Of a DNA stretch of 25,537 nt, positions 2,270 through 23,271 are shown piece by piece. The notes below the pieces were generated by a model that saw only the letters and a program-made list of their open reading frames with translations, searched no databases and was not told the DNA's origin. Source of the DNA: Candidatus Hermodarchaeota archaeon (GTDB lineage Archaea; Asgardarchaeota; Lokiarchaeia; Sigyniarchaeales; SOKP01); the NCBI GenBank assembly GCA_048885525.1, contig JBHLLP010000050.1, positions 1-25,537 on the forward strand, read 5' to 3'. The first letter of the stretch is position 1. Each line of letters begins with the position of its first letter. The position numbers and the translations under genes are program-made.

Positions 2270-5059
2270 ATGACATTATTTAAAAACAAATTAGTGAGAA
2301 ATAATAAAATGATTAAAAAAAAAATAATCAAAATTCGTAAATCGGGAACAATTTCGAAAATATATAGTATTTTGATGATTTTATTGCTGAGTTTTGTAGT
2401 TTTTCAAATATATTTACCCGTAGTAAGAGAAGCTGAATTCAATAGTGACGATGATTTAAATCTTAAAGTAAGCACACAATCAATATCACCAATATTACTC
2501 GGTAGCTATAGTGATGGACTTAATGATGCTAAAGATGTACAAGTATGTGGTGATATTGCGTATGTAGCAGATTATGGGGATGGATTAAATATTATTAACG
2601 TGAGTGATCCAACTTCTCCAAAATTACTTGGCAAATACGGAGACAATCATAATGAATCATGGAGATTATATGTTACTGGGAATATTGCTTACGTGGCTGA
2701 TATAAGCAATGGTTTGGAGATCATTGATGTAAGTGATCCAACCCTTCCAACATTGCTAGGAAAATATGGTGATGAGTTTAATCAAACATGGGATGTGTAC
2801 GTGACAAGTAATATTGCCTTCGTGACTGACGGAGAAGATGGCCTTGAAATAATTAATGTTAGTAACCCAAGTAATCCAAAAGAAATAGGGTATTTAGATT
2901 TTGATAAAAATGCTAAAGGAATTTTTGTCTCTGGTAATTATGCTTATGTAACATATTGGGCAGGAGGTATACGAATCATTGATATAAGAGATTTAAAAAA
3001 TCCAAAAGAAATTGCAGATTTTAATGATGGTGGAAATACTCTAGGGGTAGTTGTGCATGATAATATTGCCTACGCAGCAGATGTTGTGGGTGCCTTAGAT
3101 ATTATTGATGTAAGCAACCCAAATAAGCCCGTCAAATTAGGAAAATTTATTGATGACTTCGGTCCACATCAAGTATATGTTTCTGGTAATATCGCCTACT
3201 TAACAAATTATGCAGAAGGTTTAAAAATAATTGACGTAACTGACCCAACCAAACCCATTTTGCTTGAAAATTTTTATATTGGAAATAAACAATCATATGG
3301 GATTCATGTTATTGGTGATATCGCATATTTAGCAGATGGCATAGACGGTTTGGAGATAATTAATATAGGGTACAAGAGTGGGCAATGGTTAAATTCTTCA
3401 TTATTAGGCAAGTATGGTGATGATTATAATCTTACTTATAGTATGTATGTTTCTGGTGATATTGCTTATATAGCTGACTTAGAAGATGGATTAGAAATTG
3501 TTAATATGAGCAATCCAACCAAACCTATATTACTCGGTAGGTATAGTAATGATAATAACAAGGCATGTCGTTTAGATGTTTCTGGAAATATCGCTTATGT
3601 ACCGGAATTATCATTTGGGTTGGATATTATTAATGTTAGTGATCCGACCAACCCTACATTACTCGGTAAATATGGTGATAATTTTAATAAGTCATTTAGC
3701 GTAGATATTTCGGGTAATATCGCGTATATAGCAAGTCTAGGTGAGGGACTAGAAATAGTTAACATAAGTAACCCGAAAAAACCTCTATTACTCGGTAGGT
3801 ATGGTGATGATTATAATCAGTCTTTTTATGTGAAAATTTCTGGTAACATTGCTTATGTGGCGGATGAAGCAGATGGATTAGAAATCATTGATGTGAGTGA
3901 CCCAACTAAACCTACACTCCTTGGTAAGTATGGCGATAGTTATAATATGACGTTTGGTGTATATGTTTTAGATTGTATTGCTTATGTGGCAGATGAAGCA
4001 GATGGATTAGAAATCATTGATGTGAGTGACCCAACCAAACCTACTCTCCTTGGTAGATATACTGATGATTATAATGGTGCAGATAACGTATATGTTTCTG
4101 GGAATTTTGCTTATGTGGCAGATTGGTTTGATGGCTTGGAAATTATCGATGTAAGTGATCCTACAGATCCTAAAGAAGTTGGATTTTTTAATGATGGTGG
4201 AATTTCAACAGATGTTTACATATCAAAGAATATAGTTTATGTAGCAGATTATTTATATGGTGTGGAGATCATTGATCCGGGTTTAGATAATGATGATGAT
4301 TATCTTTCAAATGTTCAGGAAATTAAGTTTCATAATACTAATGTGAATGATCCAGACACAGATCAAGATGGACTATCTGACTATGATGAGATTGAAACTT
4401 ATATTACCGATCCTAAAGATGAGGATAGTGATGATGATGGATTAGAGGATGGCGATGAAATTTCTTACTCTACAGATCCTAATGATGAGGATTCTGATAA
4501 TGATAAGATTTTGGATGGGGAAGAAGTTATAGAAGGTTCTGATGGATATATTACAAACCCAAACAATGCTGATAGTGACGATGATGGATTGATTGATGGA
4601 TATGAAATTACTAATAGTACAAATCCAAATGATTCAGATTGTGATGATGATGGCTTGTTGGATGGCGTAGAGGTCATTACCCATGGAACTGATCCATTGA
4701 ACAATGATACGGACAACGATTTAATGCCTGATGGATGGGAGGTACAATATGAAACAAATCCTTTAGTATATGATAAAGATGAAGATTCTGACGTGGACGG
4801 CTTGACCAATTATGAAGAGCTTTTAAATGGGACAGATCCTAGAGATGATGATACTGATGATGATGGGTATCTTGATGGATGGGAAGTGGATAATGGGTAT
4901 AATCCATTGGATCCAAATGATCCTCCTCCACCGAGCAGATTACCAGAATTCTTTTGGCAAATTTTAATTTCTGTAGCTGGAGCAGCAGCAGCTGGTATTG
5001 TTGGACTTATGTTTTTCTTAATTAAAAAGAGAATGAAAAAGAAGACCTTAGGTGAATAA
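2270..5059 (+). CDS. Membrane-anchored surface protein: 14 LVIVD repeats, 9 DxDxDG-type Ca-binding (TSP3-like) repeats, C-terminal TM helix
   Basis: Repeats of IAYVAD..GLEIIDVSDP; acidic repeats such as DTDQDGLSDYDE and DTDDDGYLDGWE; PPPP linker, TM (FFWQILISVAGAAAAGIVGLMFFLI) and KKRMKKK tail; N-terminal hydrophobic segment. True start may be the ATG at 2309. Confidence 0.9.
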   Translation: MTLFKNKLVRNNKMIKKKIIKIRKSGTISKIYSILMILLLSFVVFQIYLPVVREAEFNSDDDLNLKVSTQSISPILLGSYSDGLNDAKDVQVCGDIAYVADYGDGLNIINVSDPTSPKLLGKYGDNHNESWRLYVTGNIAYVADISNGLEIIDVSDPTLPTLLGKYGDEFNQTWDVYVTSNIAFVTDGEDGLEIINVSNPSNPKEIGYLDFDKNAKGIFVSGNYAYVTYWAGGIRIIDIRDLKNPKEIADFNDGGNTLGVVVHDNIAYAADVVGALDIIDVSNPNKPVKLGKFIDDFGPHQVYVSGNIAYLTNYAEGLKIIDVTDPTKPILLENFYIGNKQSYGIHVIGDIAYLADGIDGLEIINIGYKSGQWLNSSLLGKYGDDYNLTYSMYVSGDIAYIADLEDGLEIVNMSNPTKPILLGRYSNDNNKACRLDVSGNIAYVPELSFGLDIINVSDPTNPTLLGKYGDNFNKSFSVDISGNIAYIASLGEGLEIVNISNPKKPLLLGRYGDDYNQSFYVKISGNIAYVADEADGLEIIDVSDPTKPTLLGKYGDSYNMTFGVYVLDCIAYVADEADGLEIIDVSDPTKPTLLGRYTDDYNGADNVYVSGNFAYVADWFDGLEIIDVSDPTDPKEVGFFNDGGISTDVYISKNIVYVADYLYGVEIIDPGLDNDDDYLSNVQEIKFHNTNVNDPDTDQDGLSDYDEIETYITDPKDEDSDDDGLEDGDEISYSTDPNDEDSDNDKILDGEEVIEGSDGYITNPNNADSDDDGLIDGYEITNSTNPNDSDCDDDGLLDGVEVITHGTDPLNNDTDNDLMPDGWEVQYETNPLVYDKDEDSDVDGLTNYEELLNGTDPRDDDTDDDGYLDGWEVDNGYNPLDPNDPPPPSRLPEFFWQILISVAGAAAAGIVGLMFFLIKKRMKKKTLGE
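3848..4055 (+). repeat. Near-identical intragenic direct repeat (2 x 79 nt, 129-nt period)
   Basis: 3848-3926 vs 3977-4055 match at 76/79 nt; the three differences (GCG/GCA, ACT/ACC, ACA/ACT) are synonymous. Confidence 0.85.
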
Positions 5060-5163: not shown

Positions 5164-6057
5164 TTATTTGATAACATATACAAGCTTTTGACCTTCTTGT
5201 TCTTCAAGGTTTAACTCTCGTCGGATGGCATTTCGTACTAAATACCCTCCAACGTGCAATATTGAGTCTTTTAGAATAGAATCTTGATCCATTGAAGCAT
5301 TACAAGGGTAAGCATGATGTGCTTTACTTATTCTTTCATTTAAGGAAAGTGCTCCACTCTTTCCATTCTTGAAATATTTTGATTTCAATTGTTGACAAAT
5401 ATAATATGTACTTCCACATGGAGCACTCTGAATTACACAGGTGTCTTCAATGGATTCACCATCTTTACTTAATAGAAATGAGACAATTGGTTCTCCTATT
5501 TTGTAATATTTAATAAACTCATCAATGAAATTATGATTTTTTGTTAAATTAAAACCAATTTTGTTATATTCATTTAACTCTTTACTTAATGAGCAAAAGG
5601 GTTTAGGGAAAGCTGCTTGAATACCATACTGTTCAAATTCTTCTAATACTTGCACTTGGAGCCCAGCAGGTACCCATTTTGGATCTTCTATTGGGACAAT
5701 AACAGCTCTTATACTCCTATCTTTTAGATAATAAGGAAGACCAGAGAGTAAATCTTGGTGAATTCCAACAACCATTAAATAATCTAATTGAGGAAGATTT
5801 TTTGGGAGATATAATTCTGGTTCTTCAATAAATTCAGGAGCATTTTCACCAACTTTTTCATAAAAATAGATGGAACTAGCAAAATTCTTAACATACTCAC
5901 GGCACTTATCACATTTAACATTTTGTTCTAAAACTTCACATGCTTTACAAAATTCTTCATTATTAATGAGATTCCCAACAAACTTTTGAGTTAACATCTC
6001 TGTTTCTGGTCCAATACCGTAAAGTACTCCAAGTTTATATCTTTTCTCAGTCAACAT
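5164..6057 (-). CDS. DUF166 family protein (often loosely annotated 'thymidylate synthase'), Cys-rich
   Basis: Motifs PEFIEEP, HQDL, PKPFCSL, SAPCGST, YPCNASM..D...D.ILH recalled as characteristic of DUF166; additional N-terminal CKAC...CDKC. Confidence 0.75.
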   Translation of the reverse strand: MLTEKRYKLGVLYGIGPETEMLTQKFVGNLINNEEFCKACEVLEQNVKCDKCREYVKNFASSIYFYEKVGENAPEFIEEPELYLPKNLPQLDYLMVVGIHQDLLSGLPYYLKDRSIRAVIVPIEDPKWVPAGLQVQVLEEFEQYGIQAAFPKPFCSLSKELNEYNKIGFNLTKNHNFIDEFIKYYKIGEPIVSFLLSKDGESIEDTCVIQSAPCGSTYYICQQLKSKYFKNGKSGALSLNERISKAHHAYPCNASMDQDSILKDSILHVGGYLVRNAIRRELNLEEQEGQKLVYVIK

Positions 6058-6574: not shown

Positions 6575-7033
6575 CTAATCTTCAGAATATATTGCCATAG
6601 TACTTCTACTTTCTTCCACTCTTACTGAAATCTTTTTATCTAAGTACACTTCTTTTAATTTACTATGAATATATTTTGCTAAAAGTTCGCTTGTAGTAGC
6701 CTGCAATGGTAAAAAGAAAACATCTTCTCTAGGAAACACATATCTTTTGTTAGGTGCTATAATTTCTATGGAATCTTTCTCCTCTCTTATTTCTAATTCA
6801 TCAGATTTTGTCGGTACCAGAATATAATGGTCCATAGGTTTAATTATAGACATTATTTTTTCCTTTAAATCATTAAAATCTACAACAAAATGATTTTTAT
6901 CAAGATCAGCACTTACTTCAACAGAAACATAATAATTGTGACCATGCAGCCTTGTACACTGAAGAGGCTCTTTTAAGAAGTGACTAGCACTAAATTTAGC
7001 TTCTATTGACTGCACACGTACCTTAAATCCCAT
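6575..7033 (-). CDS. queD: 6-carboxytetrahydropterin synthase / 6-pyruvoyl-tetrahydropterin synthase family (T-fold)
   Basis: FSASHFL, CTRLHGHNY (C-x3-HGH), VVDF..LK, MDH, TTSELLA and VEES motifs. Confidence 0.85.
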   Translation of the reverse strand: MGFKVRVQSIEAKFSASHFLKEPLQCTRLHGHNYYVSVEVSADLDKNHFVVDFNDLKEKIMSIIKPMDHYILVPTKSDELEIREEKDSIEIIAPNKRYVFPREDVFFLPLQATTSELLAKYIHSKLKEVYLDKKISVRVEESRSTMAIYSED

Positions 7034-7210
7034 ATATAGATTGTCTCTGTTATTAATTTATTATCTTCGATTTTTTGTATGTTAGAAGCTCTTTGAAATT
7101 TTTATATTTTATGTTTAAAAACAATAAATATGAAAATAATTTCTTTAGAATAAAGCATACTAAATCTATAAGATAATTCGAAAAAAAATATTCAATATTA
7201 TACTATAGAT

Positions 7211-8821
7211 ATGAGTTTTACCTTTTATAATAAACTTAAAGATGTTCATGAGATGGAGTACAAGAAATTAGTTATTACAGGCGCTAATGGGTATTTAGGA
7301 AAGCATTCAATAACTTCAGCGATTCAAAAAGGTTGGGAGGTGGTTGGTATTGTACGACGAGAGGATGCGGCTAAAGAAGTAGAAGCTCTTGGTGCTAAAG
7401 CTGTAATTATTAAAGATTTTAATCTTGATTCTTTAAAAAAAGTTCTTGCTGGTTGTAAAGCACTCCTTCATTTTAGAGCTGTGGTGTGTGGGTCTGAAGA
7501 TCTTTTTAAAAAGATTAATGTTGAAGGAATGAGTATTTTAATTGAGGCTGCTCTCGAAGCAAAAGTTTCTAGAATAATCTTTCCTTCAGGTTTAGGAGTT
7601 GATAGATATGGAATAGAAGAATGGGCTAATAATGCTTATTTCTACTCAAAGCATGAAGCTGAGAACATTCTTAAAAATGGAAATATTCCTTATGTAATTT
7701 TTAGACCTTCTTATATATTAGGTCCTAATGATGAACTAATACCAGACATGATAGACCAAATTGGAAGGGGAATTGTCCAAGTTGTTGGAAATGGCAAAAT
7801 ACCTATGCAGCCTGTATTTGTTAAGGATGCAGTGAACGCATTCTTAGCTGCTGCTGATGGAGGGGGGAGAAATAATCAAATTTTCGATCTGGTTGGTCCT
7901 GAAATTATGAATATGCTTCAATTAATTGAAATGGTTGTTAAGAATATGATAGAATTAGGTTTCAATATTCCTCAACCACGAATCAACAATATAAGTTTTG
8001 AAGAAGCTCCAGAACGTCTAGGAATTTGCAAAGAAATGATTGATGTAATGAGATGCGATCTTACCTCAAATGGCAATATTGCTTCCAAAGCATTAGGATA
8101 TAAATTATCGGATATAAATGCTGCAATAAAAGCAGCAATTGTAGCAAAAATGTTTCCCGAAACAAAAGAAAAAGGAGATAAAGCTATTATTTTATTATCT
8201 GGTGGAATTGATTCTGCTGTTGCACTTTATTGGGCATACCATAAAGGTTATGGCTTAATTGCAATTTCATTTGATTATCATCTACGACCAGAAAATGAAA
8301 AAAAAGCAGCCTTAAAATTAGCAGAAAGTCTCAATATTAAAGTTATAGAAATTCCAATACCTTTTATTAAGGAATCAATAGACTTACGAATAGAAGGATT
8401 TCCTATACCGAGTGCTGTTCACGCTCCTGAAGGATTTATTCCCTCTCGTAACCTTGTTTTTTATTCTATTGCATCTTATTATGCTGAAGTTTTTGGATGC
8501 AAAGTTATAATAGGTGGGCATATATCAGTTGACCCTCAAAATTTTCCAGATGCAGATCCACATTTCTTCAATTCTCTTGAGGCACTTATCAATAAAGGAA
8601 AACATAGTAAAGATAAGAATGTGATAAAATTCCTATTTCCATTAGCAAAAGAGACTAAATTGGATGTAATAAAGTTAGCAAAAAAACTAAAGGTTCCTTT
8701 AGAATGGACTTGGAGCTGTTATAGTGATGGAAATGAACCATGTGGAAAATGTATCTCTTGTAGAAAAAGGGAAGAAGCTTTTATTAGATTAAATTATTCT
8801 GATCCAAAATTTATCTTATAA
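7211..8821 (+). CDS. queC: Fusion: N-terminal atypical/extended SDR (NAD(P)-binding epimerase-like) + C-terminal QueC (7-cyano-7-deazaguanine synthase-like)
   Basis: N-domain: TGANGYLG, YFYSK (YxxxK), FRPSYILG. C-domain: LLSGGIDS PP-loop, IPSRNLVF, FPDA, WSCY...PCGKCISC Zn site. One continuous frame. True start may be the ATG at 7253. Confidence 0.85.
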   Translation: MSFTFYNKLKDVHEMEYKKLVITGANGYLGKHSITSAIQKGWEVVGIVRREDAAKEVEALGAKAVIIKDFNLDSLKKVLAGCKALLHFRAVVCGSEDLFKKINVEGMSILIEAALEAKVSRIIFPSGLGVDRYGIEEWANNAYFYSKHEAENILKNGNIPYVIFRPSYILGPNDELIPDMIDQIGRGIVQVVGNGKIPMQPVFVKDAVNAFLAAADGGGRNNQIFDLVGPEIMNMLQLIEMVVKNMIELGFNIPQPRINNISFEEAPERLGICKEMIDVMRCDLTSNGNIASKALGYKLSDINAAIKAAIVAKMFPETKEKGDKAIILLSGGIDSAVALYWAYHKGYGLIAISFDYHLRPENEKKAALKLAESLNIKVIEIPIPFIKESIDLRIEGFPIPSAVHAPEGFIPSRNLVFYSIASYYAEVFGCKVIIGGHISVDPQNFPDADPHFFNSLEALINKGKHSKDKNVIKFLFPLAKETKLDVIKLAKKLKVPLEWTWSCYSDGNEPCGKCISCRKREEAFIRLNYSDPKFIL

Positions 8822-8913: not shown

Positions 8914-9567
8914 ATGATTCATTCTGAAGAACTTAGTTTAAAGGAAGAGGAACAAGAGATTGTCATTATTTGCCCTACATGCAAAACAAAAAAAGAATTG
9001 AAAATACCAACTAAAATTATTAATCAAGCTAAACAATTAACCACTGTTTCTATTCCTTCAGGGACAGTATGTGAACATGGTTTTCAATCTTTTGTAGATA
9101 AAAATTTCAAAGTCCGTGGATATCAAAAAGTAGACTTTGAATTCTCTCATATGGAATTTTTTGAAAGTGGTGGTGAGGTAGCAGAACCGGATGATCATAC
9201 ATCTAGCCTTAGTTCACAGCAATTGTTTCAAGATATTATAAACCTATTAAGAAGTTATATTGATGATAAGGAAATCCTCGGTAGCGGGATGTTTACTGAA
9301 GATGGACATATTTTATATAGTTCTTTACCAAGTAATACACTTTTTTCTATCGCAAAAGAGTTTGAAGTTCGAAGTGAGAAAAAATTAAGTAATTTAAAGA
9401 AAATGTATCTTGAGTTAGAAAACAATCAAAAAATATGTACTAATTATATTGAAATACAAGGTATGAGGTTCGCTCTCGTACTCTTTTTCTCCCATACAGT
9501 CAAACTTGGGATGGGCAATCTATATCTTAACGATTTGGTAAAAAAAATAAGAAATTTAGAAAGTTAG
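8914..9567 (+). CDS. Zn-knuckle (CPxC...CxH) + Roadblock/LC7-like domain protein
   Basis: CPTC...VCEHGFQSFVDKNFKVRGYQ N-domain; C-domain has a helix-b-b-helix-b-b-b-helix pattern (ILGSGMFTEDGHILYSSL ... ALVLFF..TVKLGMGNLYLNDLVKKI) like Roadblock/MglB. Confidence 0.6.
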   Translation: MIHSEELSLKEEEQEIVIICPTCKTKKELKIPTKIINQAKQLTTVSIPSGTVCEHGFQSFVDKNFKVRGYQKVDFEFSHMEFFESGGEVAEPDDHTSSLSSQQLFQDIINLLRSYIDDKEILGSGMFTEDGHILYSSLPSNTLFSIAKEFEVRSEKKLSNLKKMYLELENNQKICTNYIEIQGMRFALVLFFSHTVKLGMGNLYLNDLVKKIRNLES

Positions 9568-9672: not shown

Positions 9673-10509
9673 ATGGACATCCATAAGATAAAAACTAAAA
9701 TGTTACAAGATTTAAAAGAGCAAATTCCAGAGCTTTTAACAGATCAAATTCAAATTTCAGAAATACCGAGTAAAAAAAATTCTGTTATTTTATTAAGATT
9801 TGATAAAAAACCTTCCAAATTACCACAAGAATTCATAGTTAAAATTTTTAGAACTGAAAATATCGCTAATGAGATTAACATCCTTAATAGACTAAAAAAT
9901 CAAAAATTTAATGTTCCAAGCATTTTATTTTATCATACTCCTTATTTATTCCTCGAAAAAGTTGATGGTATAAATTTATGTGATTTTATTAATGAAAGAT
10001 TAAAAGGAACAGAGAAGTTAGATGATTTGGGTTCTGAAACAAGAACTCAAATTGTGAAGAGCGTACAAAGACTTGCCGAATTTATCGCCCAATTCCATGA
10101 AAAAAATTTTGTAAGAAAAATAAGTAAAACAAAAAGGAAATATGTTCTTTGTAAAGGCGACACACGGCTAAGAGATTTCATTTATGATGATGTGAACGAC
10201 GTTCTATATGCAGTAGATTTTGAGGAAGCTTTCGAGGGTAATCATATTGAGGATTTAGCTTGGATCTGTACTTCTCTTCTCGATACAGACCCAGGAATAT
10301 TTGAAATGGAAGAACCAAAACATAAGACAGAACTTATAAATATCTTTCTAAGAAGATATTACCAAAAAAATCAAAAATTTCCATTTGACTTCAACTATTT
10401 GGCTGAAAAAATAATTGATGATTTAAATATAGTTATAGAAAGGAGAAATCTTCCTTATGGCACAATTAGCAAGAATCTTTTTCTAGAAGATATTAGCAAA
10501 GAAATGTAG
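9673..10509 (+). CDS. Protein-kinase-like fold phosphotransferase (APH/RIO/Bud32-like)
   Basis: FIVKIF (beta3 Lys), NEINIL (alphaC Glu), LFLEKVDG hinge, KGDTRLRDF catalytic loop, AVDFEEA metal-binding loop, EDLAW. Confidence 0.75.
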   Translation: MDIHKIKTKMLQDLKEQIPELLTDQIQISEIPSKKNSVILLRFDKKPSKLPQEFIVKIFRTENIANEINILNRLKNQKFNVPSILFYHTPYLFLEKVDGINLCDFINERLKGTEKLDDLGSETRTQIVKSVQRLAEFIAQFHEKNFVRKISKTKRKYVLCKGDTRLRDFIYDDVNDVLYAVDFEEAFEGNHIEDLAWICTSLLDTDPGIFEMEEPKHKTELINIFLRRYYQKNQKFPFDFNYLAEKIIDDLNIVIERRNLPYGTISKNLFLEDISKEM

Positions 10510-14130: not shown

Positions 14131-15165
14131 ATGTCTACGACAAATTCGTTAAAAGCAAAATTAAGTGAGCATAAGACAGCTGTTATATTAGCAGTGATAA
14201 TTATTGCAGGAGGTTCAATTGGTGCATATTTCGTGATTGACTATTTGAATGCTCAAAATCCAGAAAAAATAACATTAGCAACAACAACTTCTACATATGA
14301 TTCAGGATTATTGGATTATTTGCTTCCAAAATTTACTGAACAAACTGGAATTCAAATTAAAGTGCTATCAGTCGGTACAGGTACTGCAATACAATATGGG
14401 AAAGATGGGAATGTTGATGTAATTCTTGTTCATTCAAGATCGAGAGAAGATGATTTTGTCAATGCAAGTCTTGGTGTTGATGGGATTCCATATGGAATAC
14501 AACGCGCTTGTATCATGTTCAATGACTTTATAATCATTGGTCATTCTTCCAATCCAGCTAATCTTATTCCTGGTGATAACATAACAACTGCTATGACGAA
14601 ATTAAAAGATGCAATCGATACAGGTAATATGACTTTTTATTCAAGAGGAGATAATTCTGGGACTCATTCAAAAGAAAAAGAATTATGGGCTCAAATTGGT
14701 ATTGTAGCAGCTACAAGATGGAGTGCCCAACCAGATAAATACACAGAAACAGGACAAGGTATGGCAACGACTTTACTAATGACTTATGAAGATGTTGATG
14801 CAGCTCATGAGGGATATACTATTGTGGATAGAGGTACATGGCTTTCATTCAATGATACTTACACTTCTCTGAATATTTTGGCTGAACCTATTGTTGGTGA
14901 AGATTTTTTACTTAATCTTTATGGTGCCATACCAGTTAGTCCCATTTTACATCCCCATGTAAAATATCTATCTGCATGTAGATTTGTTGGTTTTTTAACA
15001 TCTCCTTATGGTCAAGCCTTAATTAATAAATATAAAAAAAATAATGCTGTTTTATTTCACGCAAATTTTGGAACATGTGATAATAGTACTAGTTGTACTA
15101 CTACTGAAAATGAAGTCGTAATGTGGGCTCCTTTTCAAGCAGAATTTGCAGGTTTAACAATCTGA
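14131..15165 (+). CDS. tupA: Tungstate ABC transporter substrate-binding protein
   Basis: LATTTSTYDSGLL (TupA TTTS signature), VGTGTA, DVILVH, SRGDNSGTHSKE, GQGM, YTIVDRGTW; N-terminal TM anchor. Confidence 0.92.
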   Translation: MSTTNSLKAKLSEHKTAVILAVIIIAGGSIGAYFVIDYLNAQNPEKITLATTTSTYDSGLLDYLLPKFTEQTGIQIKVLSVGTGTAIQYGKDGNVDVILVHSRSREDDFVNASLGVDGIPYGIQRACIMFNDFIIIGHSSNPANLIPGDNITTAMTKLKDAIDTGNMTFYSRGDNSGTHSKEKELWAQIGIVAATRWSAQPDKYTETGQGMATTLLMTYEDVDAAHEGYTIVDRGTWLSFNDTYTSLNILAEPIVGEDFLLNLYGAIPVSPILHPHVKYLSACRFVGFLTSPYGQALINKYKKNNAVLFHANFGTCDNSTSCTTTENEVVMWAPFQAEFAGLTI

Positions 15166-15227
15166 AAAAAATGTTAATTAATTATTTTTTTAAATTCAAA
15201 TCTAAAAAAGGAATTTAAGGTGGAATT

Positions 15228-15923
15228 ATGGCAAATGATATTTTAGAGGGAATTATAGAAGCGTTAAGGTTGATGTTTACTTTTGATCCTGAACTGTGGA
15301 GTGTAATTGGTACATCTTTCCGTGTATCATTGACTTCAACATTTTTAGCGGCTTTGGTGGCATTGCCAATCGGTTCATTCATAGGTTTAAGAGAATTTAG
15401 AGGAAAAAAGGGATTGACAAATCTAATCAACACATTTATGGGTTTTCCTCCTGTTGTCGCCGGTTTAATCGTATATTTACTACTTTCTCGAAATGGACCA
15501 TTTGGTGATTTAGGATTACTCTATTCAACAACTGCCATGATAATCGCTCAATTTCTTTTAGCAATTCCAATAATTATGGGTACGGCAAAAGCGGCTATTG
15601 AAAGTATTGATCCTGCTTTAAAAGAAACAATTCTTTCCCTAGGGGCAAATGAACGCCAATTATGGTGGGAATTAATAAAAAGCTCAAGGAAATCCATAAT
15701 TGCTGGATTTCTCGTAGCTTTTGGTCAGGCAATTTCAGAGGTGGGGGCTGTTATGATTGTGGGAGGTAATATTCGATGGGAAACAAGGACATTTACCACT
15801 TCTATTGTGCTTCAAACACGTATGGGAGAATTTGGGATGGCAATTGCTTTGGGGGTAATACTTATTTTAATAGCGTTTATTGTAAATTACGGAATGACTC
15901 GTCTACAATCTGGAGTTGAATAG
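15228..15923 (+). CDS. tupB: Tungstate ABC transporter permease
   Basis: MGFPPVVAGL, LLSRNGPFG, ISEVGAVMIVGGNI...TRTFTTSIVL; directly follows tupA. Confidence 0.92.
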   Translation: MANDILEGIIEALRLMFTFDPELWSVIGTSFRVSLTSTFLAALVALPIGSFIGLREFRGKKGLTNLINTFMGFPPVVAGLIVYLLLSRNGPFGDLGLLYSTTAMIIAQFLLAIPIIMGTAKAAIESIDPALKETILSLGANERQLWWELIKSSRKSIIAGFLVAFGQAISEVGAVMIVGGNIRWETRTFTTSIVLQTRMGEFGMAIALGVILILIAFIVNYGMTRLQSGVE

Positions 15924-17016
15924 TGTGAAACTACTTGAAGTTAAAAATTTGAGCAAACACTATTATAAAAGAGATAAATCAACAATAAAAGTACTTTCTG
16001 ATATCAGTTTTTCATTAAAAAAAGGAGAATGTTTTGTTATAATTGGTCCAAATGGAAGTGGTAAAACTACATTATTAAGATTGATTAGTTTATTAGATTC
16101 ACCTACGCAAGGTCAAATAGTTTATAATAAACAAAATATAACTAAAATTTCAGGAAAAAGATTAACGCAATATCGAAGAAAGTTCTCATTTGTGAGACAA
16201 AAACCTGTAGTGCGTAACACCACAGTATATAATAATATCGCATATGGTTTAAAGGTACGAGGGATTAAGCGAGAAAAATATGATGCAGTTGTAAATGAGA
16301 CTATTGAATTCATAGGACTTAAAGGTATGGAGAATAAAAACGCAAGATCTTTATCTGGTGGTGAAATGCAACGTGTTGCAATTGCTATGAATTTCATTAT
16401 TAATCCTGAGATTTATCTATTAGATGAAGTTTCAGCTAATTTAGATTCGATGAATGTCAAATTATTAGAAGATTTTATACTAAGAATAAAACAAGACAAC
16501 AAAAAAACCATTATTATGAGCACCCATGATCCCATTGAAGCAATAAAATATGCAGATCGCATTGCAGTGTTAAATAATGGACAAATAACCCAAATTGGAT
16601 CCCCAAATGAAATATTTACAGCACCAAAGGATGAATTTACAGCTCTTTTTGTAGGATATGAAAATGTTTTATATGGTATAGCAAAATTAGATCAATCTAC
16701 TGGGTTATCCCAAATTAAAGTAAATGATCTGATAATTACAGCATCAAGTCAAAAAGAGGGGGAAGTAAAAGTATGTATTAGACCAGAAAGTATTGGAATC
16801 GTTAAAGAACCTCCTAAGAATACAAGTTATAGGAATACTTTTAAAGGTCAAATAGAAACCATACGTGATTTAGGAAATATTTGTCATTTAATAGTCAAAA
16901 GTGGATCTGAGAAGTTTCTTATAACAATAACAGAGCTTTCAAAAAAGAATTTAAAATTAAAATTTGGTTCTGAGGTATATATCAATTTCAAAGCAACAGA
17001 TGTCAAAATTTTGTAG
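15916..17016 (+). CDS. tupC: Tungstate/molybdate ABC transporter ATPase with C-terminal TOBE domain
   Basis: GPNGSGKT, LSGGEMQR, YLLDE, STHD; C-terminal IRPESI...SYRNTFKG...FKATDV is TOBE-like. TTG start overlaps the tupB end. Confidence 0.88.
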   Translation: MNSVKLLEVKNLSKHYYKRDKSTIKVLSDISFSLKKGECFVIIGPNGSGKTTLLRLISLLDSPTQGQIVYNKQNITKISGKRLTQYRRKFSFVRQKPVVRNTTVYNNIAYGLKVRGIKREKYDAVVNETIEFIGLKGMENKNARSLSGGEMQRVAIAMNFIINPEIYLLDEVSANLDSMNVKLLEDFILRIKQDNKKTIIMSTHDPIEAIKYADRIAVLNNGQITQIGSPNEIFTAPKDEFTALFVGYENVLYGIAKLDQSTGLSQIKVNDLIITASSQKEGEVKVCIRPESIGIVKEPPKNTSYRNTFKGQIETIRDLGNICHLIVKSGSEKFLITITELSKKNLKLKFGSEVYINFKATDVKIL

Positions 17017-17077
17017 AGTTTTCTATGGTTTTAAAATATTAATTTGGCAAAACCTCAAATATACTATTTTAAATCAA

Positions 17078-17788
17078 TTATATCCCCAAATAAACTTTCC
17101 TTATTCGAGGTTCTTTTACCAATTCTTCTTTTGTACCTCTTATTTCAATTTTCCCTTCTTCAAGAACATGAATTGTATCTGCTACGTCCATTGCTAAATG
17201 CACATCCTGTTCGACTATTAAAGTTGTTGTTCCTTCTTGTTTTATTTTTTTAATTGCTCTAAATATCTTTTTTTTTACACTAGGTGCTAAACCTACGGAT
17301 GGCTCATCCAATAAGAGGAGTTTTGGATTTGACATTAACGCACGAGCTATTGCAAGCATTTGTTGTTCACCACCACTTAACAATCCAGCCGTTTGTTTTC
17401 GTCTTTCTTCTAATTGAGGGAATATTTCATAGACAAAATCTCTCAATCTCTTATATTCTTTTTTATTGTTTATAAAATATGCTCCCATTCTGATATTGTC
17501 TGCAACATTCAAATCATAAAATAATCGGCGACGATCTGGACTTTGAGAAATTCCTTTTTTCGCAATTTTATGTGCTTTTAAGCCATCGATTCTTTCACCT
17601 AAGAATTCTATTCTTCCACTACTGGGTTTTTCTAATCCAGATATTAATCTAAGTAAGGTTGATTTTCCAACTCCATTTGGACCAATAATGGCATTAAGAG
17701 ATTTTGCTTCAATTCTTAAATTGAGATCTTCAAGTACTCTCGCTTTTCCATAATAATGATAAATCTTTTTTAATTCAAGCATATTCAT
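17078..17788 (-). CDS. livF: LivF-type ABC ATPase (branched-chain amino acid transporter family), stand-alone here
   Basis: GPNGVGKS, FPQLEERRKQTAGLLSGGEQQMLAIARALMSNPKLLLLDEPSVGLAP, IVEQD, VYLG C-terminus. Confidence 0.88.
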   Translation of the reverse strand: MNMLELKKIYHYYGKARVLEDLNLRIEAKSLNAIIGPNGVGKSTLLRLISGLEKPSSGRIEFLGERIDGLKAHKIAKKGISQSPDRRRLFYDLNVADNIRMGAYFINNKKEYKRLRDFVYEIFPQLEERRKQTAGLLSGGEQQMLAIARALMSNPKLLLLDEPSVGLAPSVKKKIFRAIKKIKQEGTTTLIVEQDVHLAMDVADTIHVLEEGKIEIRGTKEELVKEPRIRKVYLGI

Positions 17789-18090
17789 AAACCTAAAATT
17801 ATGTTTAAGTAGGGGAATACTTGAACTTTGTTATTATAATATCAATTTTTTTGCTTCCAATTTGTATTCATAATAATGTACTTACAAACTCTTTATCAAA
17901 TTATGTTTAATTGTCAAGTTCTTTTAAATCTCAAGGTGACTGATATAGAAATCTTATAAGTAAACTCTTATAATTTATAGCAAGGAACTTTTAAAACTGG
18001 GAAAACTTACATGATTTAATTATAAAATCATATCATTCTTCCTTATTTTTCCTATAAAAAACTACACACGTTAGATTTGACGAAGTTTCG

Positions 18091-19140
18091 ATGGAGAGAA
18101 AAAGAAAAATTTATTTAGAATACATTGGAATTCTTATTTTGTTATGTCTTCCCCTATTTGGATTGATTGGGCTCGTTATTAGCAGAAATATAATTACTCC
18201 CAATGATGAGTTTTTTGTAGTAACTAAGGGAGAAATTCCGTTTGTTCCAGTTAATACTTGGAGTTTAACAATTGATGGACATGTTAACAATAGTTTAACT
18301 TTTATGTATTCTAACCTTACCTCTCTCCCTTCAAAGGAAGTTTTTGCGACGCTACAATGTGTTGATGGACCATATGGAACAGCTATATGGAAAGGAATTC
18401 CTATTAAAAATCTACTAGATTTGGTACAGGTAAAAACTGGGGCTCTAGACGTTATATTTTATGCTGCAGATGATTATTCTTCTTCATTAACTATTGAAGA
18501 AGTAAGTGTAGACAATATTCTTTTAGCATATGAAATGAATGGGGAAATACTTCCGGTTGAACAAGGATTTCCAGTTAGAGTAGTCGCTCCAAACCATTTA
18601 GGGTACAAATGGGTGAAATGGGTCGTAAGAATTGAGATTGTAAATTATGACTATATTGGTTTTTGGGAAAGTCGGGGATGGAGTGATAATGCATATCGTA
18701 CACCCTTCACTGACTGGATCTTACATGCTGAATTACTAGCGATTTCTTTTCTCTTGGGGGGGATTGCTTTAATGTCCGGATTAAAAAGGTCTCCGGCTAC
18801 AGAATTCTTTCGCGATCTACCTAAGTTTATAAATAAAAAGTTCCATATTGTTGTTGGTATAGGGTATTTTCTCACATCTCTAAGCACTTTCTTTTATTGG
18901 GTAATTTCTACAATCTTAAACAGAGGAGCCATATTTTATACAATTCATGGTATAACCGCTCTTATTTCTATGATACTTGTAATACCGGGTATTATTACAG
19001 GTTTTAAAAAATCAAGAAAGAGAGATAATAAAAAAAGAACATGGCATTATAAATGGAATTTATATTCTTTTTATTCATTTTTAATTACAGTCATTTTAGG
19101 ATTTGCATTGATATTTATTAGATTGTTATATTTATATTAG
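18091..19140 (+). CDS. Sulfite-oxidase/MsrP-family molybdopterin domain fused to a 4-TM, 4-His cytochrome b561-like domain, with N-terminal TM anchor
   Basis: TPNDEFF, TLQCVDG (Mo-ligand Cys), WKG, LLAYEMNGEILPVEQGFPVRVVAP...GYKWVKW, GFWESRGW; then TM helices each starting with His (ILHAEL, KFHIVV, TIHGIT, TWHYKW). Confidence 0.85.
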   Translation: MERKRKIYLEYIGILILLCLPLFGLIGLVISRNIITPNDEFFVVTKGEIPFVPVNTWSLTIDGHVNNSLTFMYSNLTSLPSKEVFATLQCVDGPYGTAIWKGIPIKNLLDLVQVKTGALDVIFYAADDYSSSLTIEEVSVDNILLAYEMNGEILPVEQGFPVRVVAPNHLGYKWVKWVVRIEIVNYDYIGFWESRGWSDNAYRTPFTDWILHAELLAISFLLGGIALMSGLKRSPATEFFRDLPKFINKKFHIVVGIGYFLTSLSTFFYWVISTILNRGAIFYTIHGITALISMILVIPGIITGFKKSRKRDNKKRTWHYKWNLYSFYSFLITVILGFALIFIRLLYLY

Positions 19141-19214
19141 AATTTTGAATTACTAAGAAGAATGTTTTATATTTTAAACAAAATTAATAAACCAATCACA
19201 ATTATATTCATCAA

Positions 19215-19238
19215 CGATATGTCTAATAAAACACATCG
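19215..19238. promoter_or_regulatory. Second ModE-like operator upstream of moaC
   Basis: CGATATGT-CTAATAAA-ACACATCG: 8-bp arms complementary at 7/8, same 24-bp length as the tupA site, left arm 7/8 identical to it; 24 nt before the moaC ATG. Confidence 0.55.
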
Positions 19239-19262
19239 CGTTCAATAGAGATTAAACTTAGA

Positions 19263-19697
19263 ATGATCGATATATCTGAAAAAGATACAATTATTAGGAT
19301 CGCAGTGGCATCTGGTAAGATTAAATTAGAAAATGAAACGATAGAAAGAATTAAAAACAAACAACTGAAAAAAGGAGATGCTTTTTCTGTAACAAAAGTT
19401 GCTGCAATTAATGCCATTAAAAAAGTACCGGATTTAATTCCGTTTTGTCATCAAATTCCTATAACAAATATAGATATAGGTTTTGAAATTGAAAATAATA
19501 CTATTAAAGTGACATGTAAAGTCAAAAGTATTGCTAAAACGGGTGTTGAGATGGAAGCATTAACTGGAGTAAGTGTTGCTCTTTTAAACTTATGGGATGT
19601 AGTTAAAATGTATGAAAAGGATGAAAAGGGTCAATATCCGTCAACACTTATCTATGATATTAAGGTTGAGCAAAAAGTTAAAGAAAAGGAAAATTAA
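19263..19697 (+). CDS. moaC: Cyclic pyranopterin monophosphate synthase
   Basis: MIDISEK, KKGD, LIPFCHQI, KTGVEMEALTG, WDVVK. Confidence 0.95.
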   Translation: MIDISEKDTIIRIAVASGKIKLENETIERIKNKQLKKGDAFSVTKVAAINAIKKVPDLIPFCHQIPITNIDIGFEIENNTIKVTCKVKSIAKTGVEMEALTGVSVALLNLWDVVKMYEKDEKGQYPSTLIYDIKVEQKVKEKEN

Positions 19698-19700
19698 AGT

Positions 19701-20621
19701 ATGAAAGATAAATGTAATAGAGAAATCAAGCATCTTAGATTTTCAATTACTTCGAAATGTAATTATAATTGCATTTATTGTGACCAAGAAGGTTTTATCC
19801 CAAAAACATCAGAACTAACTGTGGAAGAGATAACTAAATTATGTAAAATTTTAGCTGAAATTCTAAAAGTTACTAGGATTAAATTCACAGGAGGAGAACC
19901 ATTGTGTAGAGAAGAGATTGTAGAAATAATTAAAAATGTGGCTGATTTACACCTCTATAAAGATATTTCTTTAACTACTAATGGTTTTCTATTATACGAA
20001 AAAGCAGAAGAATTATTTAAAGCCGGATTAAATAGGATAAATGTATCTTTAGCATCACTTAAACCAGAAGTATATAATAAAGTATATGGTTCAGACTCTT
20101 TGGATAAAGTTTTAAAAGGTTTACAAAAAGCCAAGCAAGTAGGATTTGATCCAATAAAATTAAATTTTGTGTTAATGAAAGGGATTAATGATGATGAACT
20201 AGAGTCTATGTATGAATTTTGCGCAAAAAATGGTTTTGTTCTTCAACTGATTGAATTACATGAGGTTTCAGATGTAGTAGGAGGAAATGGTGAATTTTAT
20301 AAGAAACACCATTTAGACGTTAAATCAATCATAAAAGATCTAGAATCGAGGGCAAAACAAATATTAATAAGAGGTTCTATGCAAAATAGAAAGATTTTCA
20401 TATTACCTAATTCTGCAACAATTGAAACAATCACTCCTAGTCATGAATTTTGTATGGGGTGTACTAAACTTCGTGTTGGATGTGATGGAAATCTATTTGG
20501 ATGTTTATATCGATCTGATCTTGGAAAAAATATTAAAGAAGCTCTTCATAATCACCATTCATTATCAAAATATGAACAAATTGTAAAACAAGTTGTGGAC
20601 TCTCGAGAGCCTTATTATTGA
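19701..20621 (+). CDS. moaA: GTP 3',8-cyclase (radical SAM), archaeal type
   Basis: LRFSITSKCNYNCIYC, KFTGGEP, TTNG, RINVS, KLNFV, FCMGCTKLR...CL; REPYY C-terminus. Confidence 0.95.
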   Translation: MKDKCNREIKHLRFSITSKCNYNCIYCDQEGFIPKTSELTVEEITKLCKILAEILKVTRIKFTGGEPLCREEIVEIIKNVADLHLYKDISLTTNGFLLYEKAEELFKAGLNRINVSLASLKPEVYNKVYGSDSLDKVLKGLQKAKQVGFDPIKLNFVLMKGINDDELESMYEFCAKNGFVLQLIELHEVSDVVGGNGEFYKKHHLDVKSIIKDLESRAKQILIRGSMQNRKIFILPNSATIETITPSHEFCMGCTKLRVGCDGNLFGCLYRSDLGKNIKEALHNHHSLSKYEQIVKQVVDSREPYY

Positions 20622-20645
20622 TATTTACAAAAACTGAGTAGAAAA

Positions 20646-20924
20646 ATGGAAATAGTAGTTCTTTATTTCGCTGAATTTAAGGATATAACAAAAATAGAGA
20701 AAGAGAAGTTTATTTTAACTGAATCCACTTTGGATAATTTATTAAAGTTATTATTTGAAAAATATAAGTTAAAAAATTTACTTTGGGATGAAAAAATCCA
20801 AAAAATACATAATTTAATTTCAATCATAATAAATAATCAAGCTATCCACGAGAAAGATCCATCCTTAATTAACTTAAAAGATGGGGATACAATTGCTTTC
20901 TTATTACCGGTTTCAGGAGGATAA
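20646..20924 (+). CDS. moaD: Molybdopterin synthase sulfur carrier (MoaD/SAMP-like beta-grasp)
   Basis: V.YFA N-terminus, LKDGDTIAFLLPVSGG with terminal Gly-Gly; lies between moaA and moaE. Confidence 0.93.
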   Translation: MEIVVLYFAEFKDITKIEKEKFILTESTLDNLLKLLFEKYKLKNLLWDEKIQKIHNLISIIINNQAIHEKDPSLINLKDGDTIAFLLPVSGG

Positions 20925-20929
20925 TTAAA

Positions 20930-21376
20930 ATGATCCCACATGAAGTAAATGTTAGATCTGGTATATATAATAAAGGAGAAATTGAAATAGACAATATAAT
21001 TAAATCTATACGAGCAAATCCCCTTATAGGAAAAGCGGGCTCTATTCATACATTTACTGGAATAGTAAGAGATAGTTCATTAAGTGGTAAACAAGTAATT
21101 AGGATGAAAATTGATGCTTATGATGAGCTAGCAAATAAGAGTATTATAAAAATATGTGAAGAATTGAAACAAAATGAAGGGATAATAGACGTAAAAATTG
21201 TACACTTAAAAGGGAATTTTGATCTATCTGAGGATTTAGTTTATGTTGTTGTAGCATCAGCCCATAGAAAAGAAGGATTCGAAGTAATAAAAAAAGCTGT
21301 TGATATGTATAAAAAAGAAATAGCGGTATGGAAAAGAGAAGATTTTAAAGATGGAACATCTGAATGGATCCATTAA
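20930..21376 (+). CDS. moaE: Molybdopterin synthase catalytic subunit
   Basis: GSIHTFTGIVR, IVHLKG, VVVASAHRKEGF, KKEIAVWKRE. Confidence 0.93.
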   Translation: MIPHEVNVRSGIYNKGEIEIDNIIKSIRANPLIGKAGSIHTFTGIVRDSSLSGKQVIRMKIDAYDELANKSIIKICEELKQNEGIIDVKIVHLKGNFDLSEDLVYVVVASAHRKEGFEVIKKAVDMYKKEIAVWKREDFKDGTSEWIH

Positions 21377-21444
21377 AAATGGTCTATAAAAGACTAAAAA
21401 GTAATTTATAAGTTATTGATATTAACAGAAAAATTGATTCTTAA

Positions 21445-22671
21445 ATGAAATTTTTAAAAACTTTAAGTATTGAAGAGTTCAAAAATATACTGAATTCGAT
21501 ACAGAAGATTAAAACAGAAGAAGAATTAGTTCCTTTAGAAGATTCATTTAACAGGGTTATTTCAAAAGATATTACGAGTAATATTAATGTTCCACACTTC
21601 CGAAAATCAAGGATGGATGGCTTTGCGTGCATTGCAGAGGATACTTTTAATGCTGAAGAAGATCACTTAGTTGAGCTTGAATTAATAGAGACAATACAAG
21701 CAGGAGACATTCCCCAAGAAAAGTTAAATCAAGGACAATGTTCTTATGTAGCTACAGGAGCAGCTGTCCCTGAAAACTCAGACGGAGTAGTAATTGTTGA
21801 ATTTACTGAAAGCAAGGGCAATAAGATTTTAATATCTAAAGCTGTTACTCCTGGGACACACATTATTGATATCGGGCATGATATAAAAAAAAACTCTATT
21901 ATTGTTAAAAAAGATTCTTTAATTGATTTAGCTAGTATGGGTATTCTCGCTTCCTGTGGGATAAAACAAGTATCTGTATATAAGGTACCAATAGTAAGTC
22001 TGTTAAGTACGGGGAATGAATTGGTAAGTCAGGATATAAAAGAATTAGAAGTTGGTAAAATTTATGATGTAAATTCAATTGTTTTGAAAAGAGCTATTCA
22101 AAATACAGGTGTCCAAGTGAATTTCTTAGGGGTTGTTAAGGATGAGTATAGTGAATTGAAGAATATGATTGATAAAGCATTGGATATTAGTGAAATAGTT
22201 ATTTTATCTGGAGGCACTTCTAAAGGTGAAGGAGACTTAGGACCAAAAGTTTTAGAAGAATATAAAGATATTGAAATTTTAGTTCATGGAGTAAAGATAA
22301 AACCTGGAAAACCCATTATTTTTGCTAAGATGAAGGAAAAAATATTATTTATTTTACCAGGTTATCCAGCTTCTGCTCTAAGCTGTTTTTATTTGTTTAT
22401 TGATACTTTTCTAAGAAAATTATCGGGATTTCCTTTAAGAGAAACAACAGCAAAGGAAATGGAAGTTGGAGAAAGAATGTATAGTATTATTGGTAGGCAT
22501 GAATTTAAAGCAATTAAAATTCAAGAAGATAATGGTGTAAAAAAAATATTTCCTATCAAAACAGGTTCAGAGGCAATAAGCACTATGTTCTATGCTGATG
22601 GTTATATAGAAATTGAGGAATTAGAATCAATTATAGAAAAAGGAGATAAAAGGAGGGTTTTTTCCTTCTGA
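21445..22671 (+). CDS. moeA: Molybdopterin molybdenum/tungsten transferase (paralog 1)
   Basis: PHFRKSRMDGFA, ATGA, STGNEL, SGGTSKG, KPGKP, LPGYP. Confidence 0.93.
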   Translation: MKFLKTLSIEEFKNILNSIQKIKTEEELVPLEDSFNRVISKDITSNINVPHFRKSRMDGFACIAEDTFNAEEDHLVELELIETIQAGDIPQEKLNQGQCSYVATGAAVPENSDGVVIVEFTESKGNKILISKAVTPGTHIIDIGHDIKKNSIIVKKDSLIDLASMGILASCGIKQVSVYKVPIVSLLSTGNELVSQDIKELEVGKIYDVNSIVLKRAIQNTGVQVNFLGVVKDEYSELKNMIDKALDISEIVILSGGTSKGEGDLGPKVLEEYKDIEILVHGVKIKPGKPIIFAKMKEKILFILPGYPASALSCFYLFIDTFLRKLSGFPLRETTAKEMEVGERMYSIIGRHEFKAIKIQEDNGVKKIFPIKTGSEAISTMFYADGYIEIEELESIIEKGDKRRVFSF

Positions 22672-22695
22672 TTAAAAACAATCAAATACAAATTA

Positions 22696-23265: not shown

Positions 23266-23271
23266 ATTCAT

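Follow-up and report, generated by a model that had tools for sequence, protein, structure and literature searches.

What does a relative of QueC do when it is fused to a short-chain dehydrogenase/reductase (SDR) and encoded beside queD, in a genome where QueE, the enzyme that should stand between QueD and QueC, was not found? This question is raised by a 25,537-nucleotide stretch of DNA from a Candidatus Hermodarchaeota archaeon of the Asgardarchaeota (assembly GCA_048885525.1, contig JBHLLP010000050.1, positions 1 to 25,537), hereafter the window, in which queD and the gene for an SDR-QueC-like fusion protein lie head-to-head. The described 7-deazaguanine pathways, which lead to queuosine, archaeosine, toyocamycin-type antibiotics and the DNA modifications of phages and Dpd systems, run through GTP cyclohydrolase, QueD, QueE and QueC, and we know of no alternative to QueE. 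Our analysis gives good support to the view that QueD and the fusion protein form a conserved, dispensable two-gene module that occurs in place of QueE and canonical QueC. In this Asgard lineage, QueD and a relative of QueC have been retained and QueE was lost, and the gap left by QueE is precisely where a reductase domain was gained. As to function, the motifs and gene contexts described below lead us to give a probability of about 45% to a reading in which the fusion directly uses the QueD product, 6-carboxy-5,6,7,8-tetrahydropterin (CPH4), activating its carboxylate with ATP and carrying out an NADP(H)-dependent redox step.

The SDR-QueC-like fusion is a genuine and conserved gene

The open reading frame (ORF) of the fusion spans 7211..8821 on the plus strand and encodes 536 amino acids (aa) when read from the ATG at 7211, which already opens the frame inside the AT-rich intergenic region (7034..7252) that, from a reading of its sequence, would be the promoter region shared by the two divergent genes. 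Most homologues start at the equivalent of M15 (nucleotide 7253, giving 522 aa), and 7253 is probably the start of the fusion. From this point, an extended-SDR domain (residues 15-312; 7253..8146; matched in Pfam by Epimerase, NAD_binding_10, NmrA and 3Beta_HSD) is followed by a linker (residues 313-322, KMFPETKEKG; 8147..8176) and by a QueC-like PP-loop domain (residues 323-536; 8177..8818), recognized by PF06508 and by its motifs. The queD gene, on the minus strand at 6575..7033, encodes a 152-aa 6-carboxytetrahydropterin synthase of the PTPS-I type (PF01242, 3e-24, 85.7 bits; TIGR03367, 1.7e-21), and of 44 Asgard loci, 42 show the two genes head-to-head in this way.

The in-frame fusion divergent from queD, as read in the initial annotation from the sequence alone, is borne out by the ORF list, by Pfam and by its recurrence in databases. 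At E<=0.001, 273 database proteins match, the best 120 of which all carry both domain sets at 52-78% identity; more than 100 independent protein clusters share the same continuous frame, and one fusion sits on a 3.34-Mb chromosome (CP070831.1). The SDR-QueC-like fusion is thus confirmed as genuine and conserved, neither a chance event nor an assembly artefact, and the concern that it might be unique to this assembly falls away with its wide distribution. The methionine codon at 8150 (M314) within the linker, earlier considered a relic or an internal start, is replaced by Leu in most homologues and is not a conserved internal start.

Catalytic motifs are conserved in both domains

The SDR matches span about residues 18-300 of the fusion. 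Pfam places Epimerase (PF01370, 1.3e-21) at residues 21-217, together with NAD_binding_10 (3e-19), and QueC (PF06508, 1.6e-48, 165 bits) at residues 324-526, with no glutamine amidotransferase (GATase) family among the matches. In the SDR domain, the dinucleotide-binding TGxxGxxG is present as T23-G-A-N-G-Y-L-G30, whose three motif glycines and N26 are invariant in an alignment of 51 fusions, and the catalytic triad is formed by S126, Y143 and K147 (Y143-F-Y-S-K147), with S and K invariant and Y at least 90% conserved in an 18-member SDR alignment covering three phyla. The arginine pair that follows beta-2 (R49-R50) is an NADP-type motif, and a further motif reads FRPSYILGPxDELIP. The QueC-like domain holds the PP-loop SGGIDS at 330-335, of which S, G, G, D and S are invariant in the 51 fusions, and a zinc site made of C503 (followed by Y504), C511, C514 and C517, whose first spacer has 7 residues versus 8 in canonical QueC. 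The GxxGxxG, YxxxK, PP-loop and zinc-cysteine motifs thus lie in the translation where they had first been placed. Across 115 full-length fusions, TGANGyLG (with its TGANG core), VRR, S126, Y143xxxK147 and FRPSYILGPxDELIP in the SDR domain, as well as SGGiDS, IPxRN, GGH and the Cys cluster in the QueC-like domain, are at least 95% conserved; the catalytic motifs of both domains are under strong purifying selection.

The QueC-like domain departs from canonical QueC, as had been noticed from the segments FDYHLRP and QNFPDAD and as its score of 140.9 bits against the curated QueC equivalog TIGR00364, under the cut-off of 150.3, also indicates. The counterpart of the canonical VPxRN is kept as I410-P-S-R-N414. 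The canonical YxQxHxxE is not kept, the site reading Y356-H-L-R-P-E-N-E363 (FDYHLRP, 354-360); among 13 aligned archaeal SDR-linked members Gln is never seen there and His is changed to a conserved Pro, whereas YxQ is retained in most canonical Asgard QueCs. Likewise, YPDC has given way to F445-P-D-A448 (QNFPDAD, 443-449), its Cys being gone in all SDR-linked members. The residues essential in Escherichia coli QueC are Y35, R99, Y131 (where F is tolerated, Y131F being partly active) and Y189 (PMC13329287). They correspond to Y356, R413, F445 and Y504 of the fusion, and all four are retained.

An AlphaFold2 model of the fusion, built with 51 sequences, has a mean predicted local distance difference test score (pLDDT) of 94.3 and a predicted template modelling score (pTM) of 0.83, with the pLDDT falling to 73 in the block around residues 301-310; such a confident single-chain model predicts that the two domains pack in a defined way. 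Foldseek matched it with probability 1.0 to NDUFA9 subunits of complex I and to UDP-sugar 4-epimerases/decarboxylases, with target-normalised TM values of 0.62-0.77 for most listed matches. The structural neighbours of the model are those of a generic extended-SDR fold, without specific functional assignment, and nothing beyond this epimerase-like fold supports the nucleotide-sugar coupling that had been proposed as one role of the SDR. A reading as a defence system was rejected, with no Qat or cyclic oligonucleotide-based antiphage signalling system (CBASS) partners nearby and with only a generic QueC match of 87 bits from PADLOC, run on four genes (queD, the fusion and the downstream 217-aa and 278-aa genes, DUF166 not included).

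The host genome has one QueD, and QueE was not found

In the window's genome, an assembly of 87 contigs that is 99.3% complete, the fusion is the one QueC and there is one QueD, the only COG0720 gene. The motif of this QueD, C-T-R-L-H-G-H, is the CxxxHGH of the QueD/PTPS-I class, which differs from the CxxxxxHGH of PTPS-II (PMC5041015). The protein is 61-62% identical to the QueDs of canonical queE-queD-queC clusters in a sister genus and, to the same degree, to the QueDs of another genus's fusion loci, indicating that the QueD character is unchanged.

QueE was not found in this genome with three NCBIfam models, phmmer, a custom hidden Markov model (HMM), tblastn and a QGEG motif scan. For phmmer, the HMM and tblastn, 12 Asgard QueEs taken beside QueC and QueD in relatives were used, and they included the variant type of the sister genus (EIFSSxQGEG with longer Cys spacing). 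A hidden QueE was discarded, as the best matches were only the NrdG2 activase, MoaA, a PflA-like activase and generic radical S-adenosylmethionine (SAM) proteins. A 223-aa radical-SAM protein of no clear family (P0121; G000 contig 6, 22433-23101; CxxxCxxC at about residues 43-50) was also considered as a QueE substitute and set aside: it occurs in 29 of the 81 relatives surveyed below, scattered over all three states, and is missing from many fusion carriers. Within the window, the initial annotation had listed queE, folE, TGT, arcS, queF and dpdA as absent; the first four are indeed not among the scanned ORFs, and no search with their own models was made for queF and dpdA. The sole radical-SAM gene in the window is that of MoaA (19701-20621).

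Elsewhere, the genome carries arcTGT, ArcS, a GCHY-1 type GTP cyclohydrolase and MptD. Of the genes to be checked according to the initial annotation, arcTGT and ArcS are present, and a second canonical queC and queE were not found. With neither QueE nor a second QueC, 7-carboxy-7-deazaguanine (CDG) could not be made by the known route, and the idea that the SDR tailors CDG or preQ0 (7-cyano-7-deazaguanine) loses its substrate. The YhhQ transporter was not found in this genome, and its use as a salvage marker was abandoned, its distribution being sporadic (19/81 genomes) with no clean pattern.

The module occurs in place of QueE and canonical QueC

A survey for QueE, the fusion, QueD, arcTGT and GCHY-1 covered 81 genomes of the window's GTDB family, with ArcS looked at in the window's genome only. 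Three states appear. A full or nearly full fusion is present in 33 genomes, which make up the greater part of the window's genus (g1) and of g4 and include single representatives of three other genera; queE is present in 16, with a canonical 240-aa queC beside it in 11 of these 16 with the query used; and about 32 have neither the fusion nor the queE set. The canonical queC of the family is about 31% identical to the QueC part of the fusion, and the loci inspected in genus g2 hold a queE-queD-queC cluster. No host queE or canonical queC was found in the 33 fusion carriers, many of which are 95-100% complete, and all 21 genomes in the window's genus were likewise searched for QueE without success. 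The sole queE in a fusion carrier, in G099, lies on a mobile island, and in G128, where the canonical set is present, the fusion copy is without PP-loop.

The G099 island (L039; contig 7, 58000-66316) is tightly packed on one strand. Besides several ORFs of unknown kind, it encodes a ParB-like protein, a diverged QueC, QueD, QueE and GTP cyclohydrolase I. In appearance it is a provirus or plasmid equipped with a complete preQ0 pathway for modifying its DNA, and its genes are those usually carried by mobile elements with deazaguanine DNA modification.

In this family queD is single-copy and present only alongside the fusion or the canonical cluster, and it is the only neighbour conserved across the 17 fusion loci compared. 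In four genomes of the window's genus (G174, G162, G151 and G182), queD has been lost and all that is left of the fusion is a 3′ remnant of about 100 aa, beside a DUF166 gene that has stayed in place. The module is dispensable, having undergone in-situ deletion in several relatives where arcTGT persists. As arcTGT occurs in 70/81 genomes and in all three states, including genomes without any preQ0 gene, its presence here says nothing on the product of the fusion. GCHY-1 (64/81) and MptD (37/41 genomes) are likewise found irrespective of state. With an MptA-type cyclohydrolase and MptD in place regardless of state, a bypass to 6-hydroxymethylpterin is not needed, which weakened a role of the module as dihydroneopterin aldolase bypass.

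A distinct SDR-linked QueC-like subfamily extends to other phyla

The SDR domain alone was searched against 1.84 billion representative proteins, after which loci were inspected and GTDB genomes scanned. The search returned stand-alone SDRs at 39-47% identity, in addition to more distant fusions. At loci of Bathyarchaeia/Thermoproteota the SDR gene abuts or overlaps a separate QueC-like gene, and at one Nitrososphaeria locus the two genes lie about 2.6 kb apart; no gene recurs around the bathyarchaeal pairs. In Bathyarchaeia, the pair is too uncommon (0/99 further genomes) for the exclusion pattern to be replicated there. In a maximum-likelihood tree, the archaeal SDR-linked QueC-like proteins, fused or not, form one supported clade (95/90) with the canonical Asgard QueCs outside, and they share a signature of YxxRP for YxQxH, an added GGH, and FPDA for YPDC. 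Judging from tree and signature, the QueC-like domain of the fusion is a member of a distinct SDR-linked QueC subfamily.

In Vicinamibacteria/Acidobacteriota, SDRs of the same clade (33-36% identity, same motifs) are fused to, or followed by, a QueD with CxxxHGH, as at L113:6992-8272, which adjoins purH, and at L111:6893-8316. This SDR-QueD architecture appears to be undescribed. In one uncultured bacterium, the SDR comes after QueC.

A candidate route for the QueD product and its alternatives

By motif and orthology QueD is an ordinary PTPS-I, and it should therefore make CPH4 from the GTP-cyclohydrolase product; given that no QueE was found in the genome, we infer that CPH4 is taken by the fusion protein, and CPH4 is more likely than CDG to be its substrate. 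The module would thus branch from the preQ0 pathway right after QueD and work without QueE. The QueC-like domain, in which the PP-loop, the zinc site and the four essential residues are kept and the pocket is remodelled, would bind a 2-amino-4-oxopyrimidine carboxylic acid and activate its carboxylate with ATP; it would then either make an amide or nitrile from the carboxylate or hand the acyl-adenylate on, and the NADP(H)-type SDR domain would perform a redox step on the same molecule. The end product may be a 7-deazaguanine (preQ0 or a surrogate for arcTGT) reached by a QueE-independent route, or a 6-substituted pterin. That queD is strictly kept and co-inherited with the fusion, that no other partner is conserved and that the hole in the pathway is QueE suggests such a role after QueD and without QueE.

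Several observations weigh against direct use of CPH4. The mutual exclusion of fusion and QueE follows genera and would therefore reflect few independent events. The standard archaeal pterin route (GCHY-1/MptA, MptD) is found in all three states, and the need for a new pterin is not evident. Four Bathyarchaeia/Nitrososphaeria genomes with the SDR and QueC-like pair have no QueD, such that the substrate there cannot be de novo CPH4, and one of them (a complete chromosome, the only one tested) is also without QueE. Finally, the Vicinamibacteria with SDR-QueD also hold a canonical queC-queE-queD cluster, which makes their SDR-linked QueD a second copy, and no QueC-like partner adjoins their SDR.

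Direct use of CPH4 could take two forms. If the SDR, alone or with the QueC-like domain, were an analogue of QueE, it would contract CPH4 (or its nitrile or amide) to a 7-deazaguanine without radical SAM, providing preQ0 for arcTGT, and QueD with the fusion would fully stand in for QueE and QueC. The gap in the pathway falls exactly at QueE and the extra domain is fused to the next enzyme; moreover, the fusion partner of the SDR is QueD in one phylum and QueC in another, the two enzymes between which QueE stands in the pathway. The exclusion between the fusion and queE with canonical queC, together with the PP-loop-less fusion of G128, and the retained QueC residues fit this picture, and the closest folds include epimerases, which use transient oxidation. 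However, an SDR-catalysed contraction of a pterin to a pyrrolopyrimidine is without chemical precedent. The Arg-Arg after beta-2 suggests NADP(H) and thus a net NADPH-dependent reduction, while the QueE reaction is redox-neutral; an altered QueC pocket would not be expected were CDG still the substrate; and the pair-bearing Bathyarchaeia without QueD, like the SDR-QueD Vicinamibacteria that retain QueE, do not follow from it. A radical-SAM-independent construction of the 7-deazaguanine ring, with an NADP-dependent SDR fed by QueD taking over the QueE step, seems distinctly unlikely to us. Alternatively, the QueC-like domain could adenylate the C6 carboxylate of CPH4 (or of salvaged 6-carboxypterin) and the product could be a pterin, not a deazapurine, the SDR reducing the acyl-adenylate with NADPH to 6-formyl- or 6-hydroxymethyl-tetrahydropterin, or the carboxylate being converted to an amide or nitrile. 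CPH4 is a heteroaryl-type carboxylic acid, as is CDG, and this form agrees with the remodelling of the substrate pocket, with the NADP-type SDR motif and with the ability of extended SDRs to bind nucleotide-linked substrates. Fusion or translational coupling would suit the hand-over of a labile adenylate, and salvage of an oxidised pterin acid would account for the QueD-less Bathyarchaeia. It is nevertheless rather doubtful, as nearly all relatives already supply 6-hydroxymethylpterin through the MptA-type cyclohydrolase and MptD, as the Vicinamibacteria SDR-QueD has no QueC-like partner near it, and as the exclusion with QueE and QueC is left without a reason.

Ordinary QueC chemistry is the alternative to direct use of CPH4: CDG would come from salvage or from an unlinked, unrecognised QueE substitute, and the SDR would carry out an accessory step (a QueF-like reduction of the nitrile or adenylate) or serve as a redox sensor. 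The PF06508 score of 165 bits and the conserved essential residues are those expected of such an enzyme, the bathyarchaeal pair, which does without QueD, suggests a substrate obtained by salvage, the family often relies on salvage judging from arcTGT in genomes without preQ0 genes, and a YhhQ-type transporter occurs in about 11 fusion carriers. Such chemistry fails to account for the strict retention of queD next to the fusion and for their joint loss, given that there is no QueE to use CPH4. The candidates for a substitute fail, P0121 being sporadic in all three states and DUF166 universal, there is no YhhQ in the window's genome, and the score lies below the QueC equivalog cut-off; we consider this reading rather improbable. 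One may also ask if two genes were merged by annotation or assembly, or if QueE was missed in incomplete metagenome-assembled genomes (MAGs), given that all data come from MAGs and that unfused SDR and QueC-like pairs exist in other lineages. The continuous frame in over 100 independent clusters, one of them on a 3.34-Mb chromosome, the failure to find QueE in 32/33 carriers, with the mobile island as the exception, and the confident single-chain model leave an artefact with almost no credence.

The outcomes differ in what they would mean. If the module makes preQ0, it would bring a new enzymology of ring contraction and supply a part so far missing from archaeosine synthesis in the archaea most closely related to eukaryotes; if the SDR itself performs the QueE step, a second, unrelated contraction of CPH4 to a deazapurine would exist in anaerobic archaea and, via SDR-QueD, in some Acidobacteriota. 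If a pterin is made, CPH4 would be a branch point to a new cofactor or metabolite, and the automatic label "7-cyano-7-deazaguanine synthase" would be wrong.

Comparison with known systems

In the GAT-QueC of Crenarchaeota, a glutamine amidotransferase partner acts after the insertion of preQ0, in archaeosine synthesis. It likewise joins an archaeal QueC domain to another catalytic domain for a further deazaguanine step; here, however, the partner is an NADP-type SDR and the missing enzyme is the upstream QueE. Carboxylic acid reductases combine an adenylation domain of the ANL type, a carrier domain and an SDR-type NADPH reductase domain. They resemble the fusion in logic only, with ATP-dependent carboxylate activation and an NADPH SDR on one polypeptide, whereas the fusion has no carrier domain and its activator is a PP-loop ATP pyrophosphatase instead of an ANL adenylase. 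QueF, the NADPH-dependent preQ0 reductase that acts after preQ0 in bacteria, also brings NADPH redox chemistry to the deazaguanine pathway, but its T-fold is unrelated and a nitrile reduction is not indicated for the fusion.

Canonical QueC (Bacillus subtilis 3BL5, E. coli; PF06508 cluster 1, PMC13329287) has in common with the fusion the SGGxDS PP-loop, the zinc cysteines, the PxRN arginine, the aromatic residue at the YPDC site, the Tyr after the first Cys and the queD neighbour. The fusion differs from it by an N-terminal SDR of 300 aa, by YHLRPENE for YxQxHxxE, FPDA for YPDC and the new GGH, by identity of only about 31% within the same family, by its separate clade and sub-threshold TIGR00364 score, and by a genome in which no QueE was found. 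In the tetrahydrobiopterin pathway, PTPS and sepiapterin reductase (PMC5041015) couple a COG0720 T-fold enzyme to an SDR that acts on its pterin, and the SDR-QueD of Vicinamibacteria has the same layout; here, the COG0720 enzyme has the QueD motif CxxxHGH and the SDR is of the extended, NDUFA9/epimerase-like kind, not a classical sepiapterin reductase. QatC/Cap9 (PMC13329287) likewise put the QueC fold to a new use, but the partner of the fusion is queD, with no Qat or CBASS genes nearby. A 2026 survey of the QueC family (PMC13329287) does not mention an SDR-QueC architecture and left three archaeal clusters unanalysed. Full-text literature searches turned up no described SDR-QueC fusion, in line with the initial annotation, which knew of none. 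The fusion is thus undescribed in the literature found, and so is a route of this kind for the QueD product.

Other genes of the window

An Rfam search of the window gave zero matches. The remaining genes encode an ArsR/MarR-type regulator, a 929-aa LVIVD-repeat protein, DUF166, a Kdo/APH-like kinase, a classical SDR, a molybdate ABC transporter, a molybdenum-cofactor cluster (MoaA, MoaC, MoaE, two MoeA) and an FTR1 permease, with no queuosine or archaeosine gene among them. The DUF166 gene (5164-6057, minus strand) adjoins queD and encodes a Cys-rich protein found in 75/81 relatives, often in 2-3 copies, and not tied to the fusion; it was rejected as a partner, staying in place where queD and the fusion are deleted. 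On the 3′ side of the fusion, a gene at 8914-9567 (plus strand) encodes a 217-aa protein with zero Pfam matches, and the 278-aa Kdo/APH-like kinase follows at 9673-10509 (plus strand). At least the kinase gene keeps its place within the window's genus (7 of 17 compared loci), and more distant fusion loci do not share this synteny; despite a weak similarity (E = 4e-4) to a kinase beside a bathyarchaeal pair, the kinase was dismissed as a conserved partner, not being kept across genera.

The 929-aa protein (2270-5059, plus strand) is a surface protein with 12 LVIVD repeats, Asp-rich TSP3-type calcium-binding repeats and a C-terminal membrane anchor. At 14131-24519, the molybdate ABC transporter (PBP_like_2, permease and an ATPase with TOBE) is followed by a sulfite-oxidase-like molybdoenzyme and by MoaC, MoaA, a MoaE-like protein, two MoeA and MoCF_biosynth, which make up a complete molybdenum-cofactor block.

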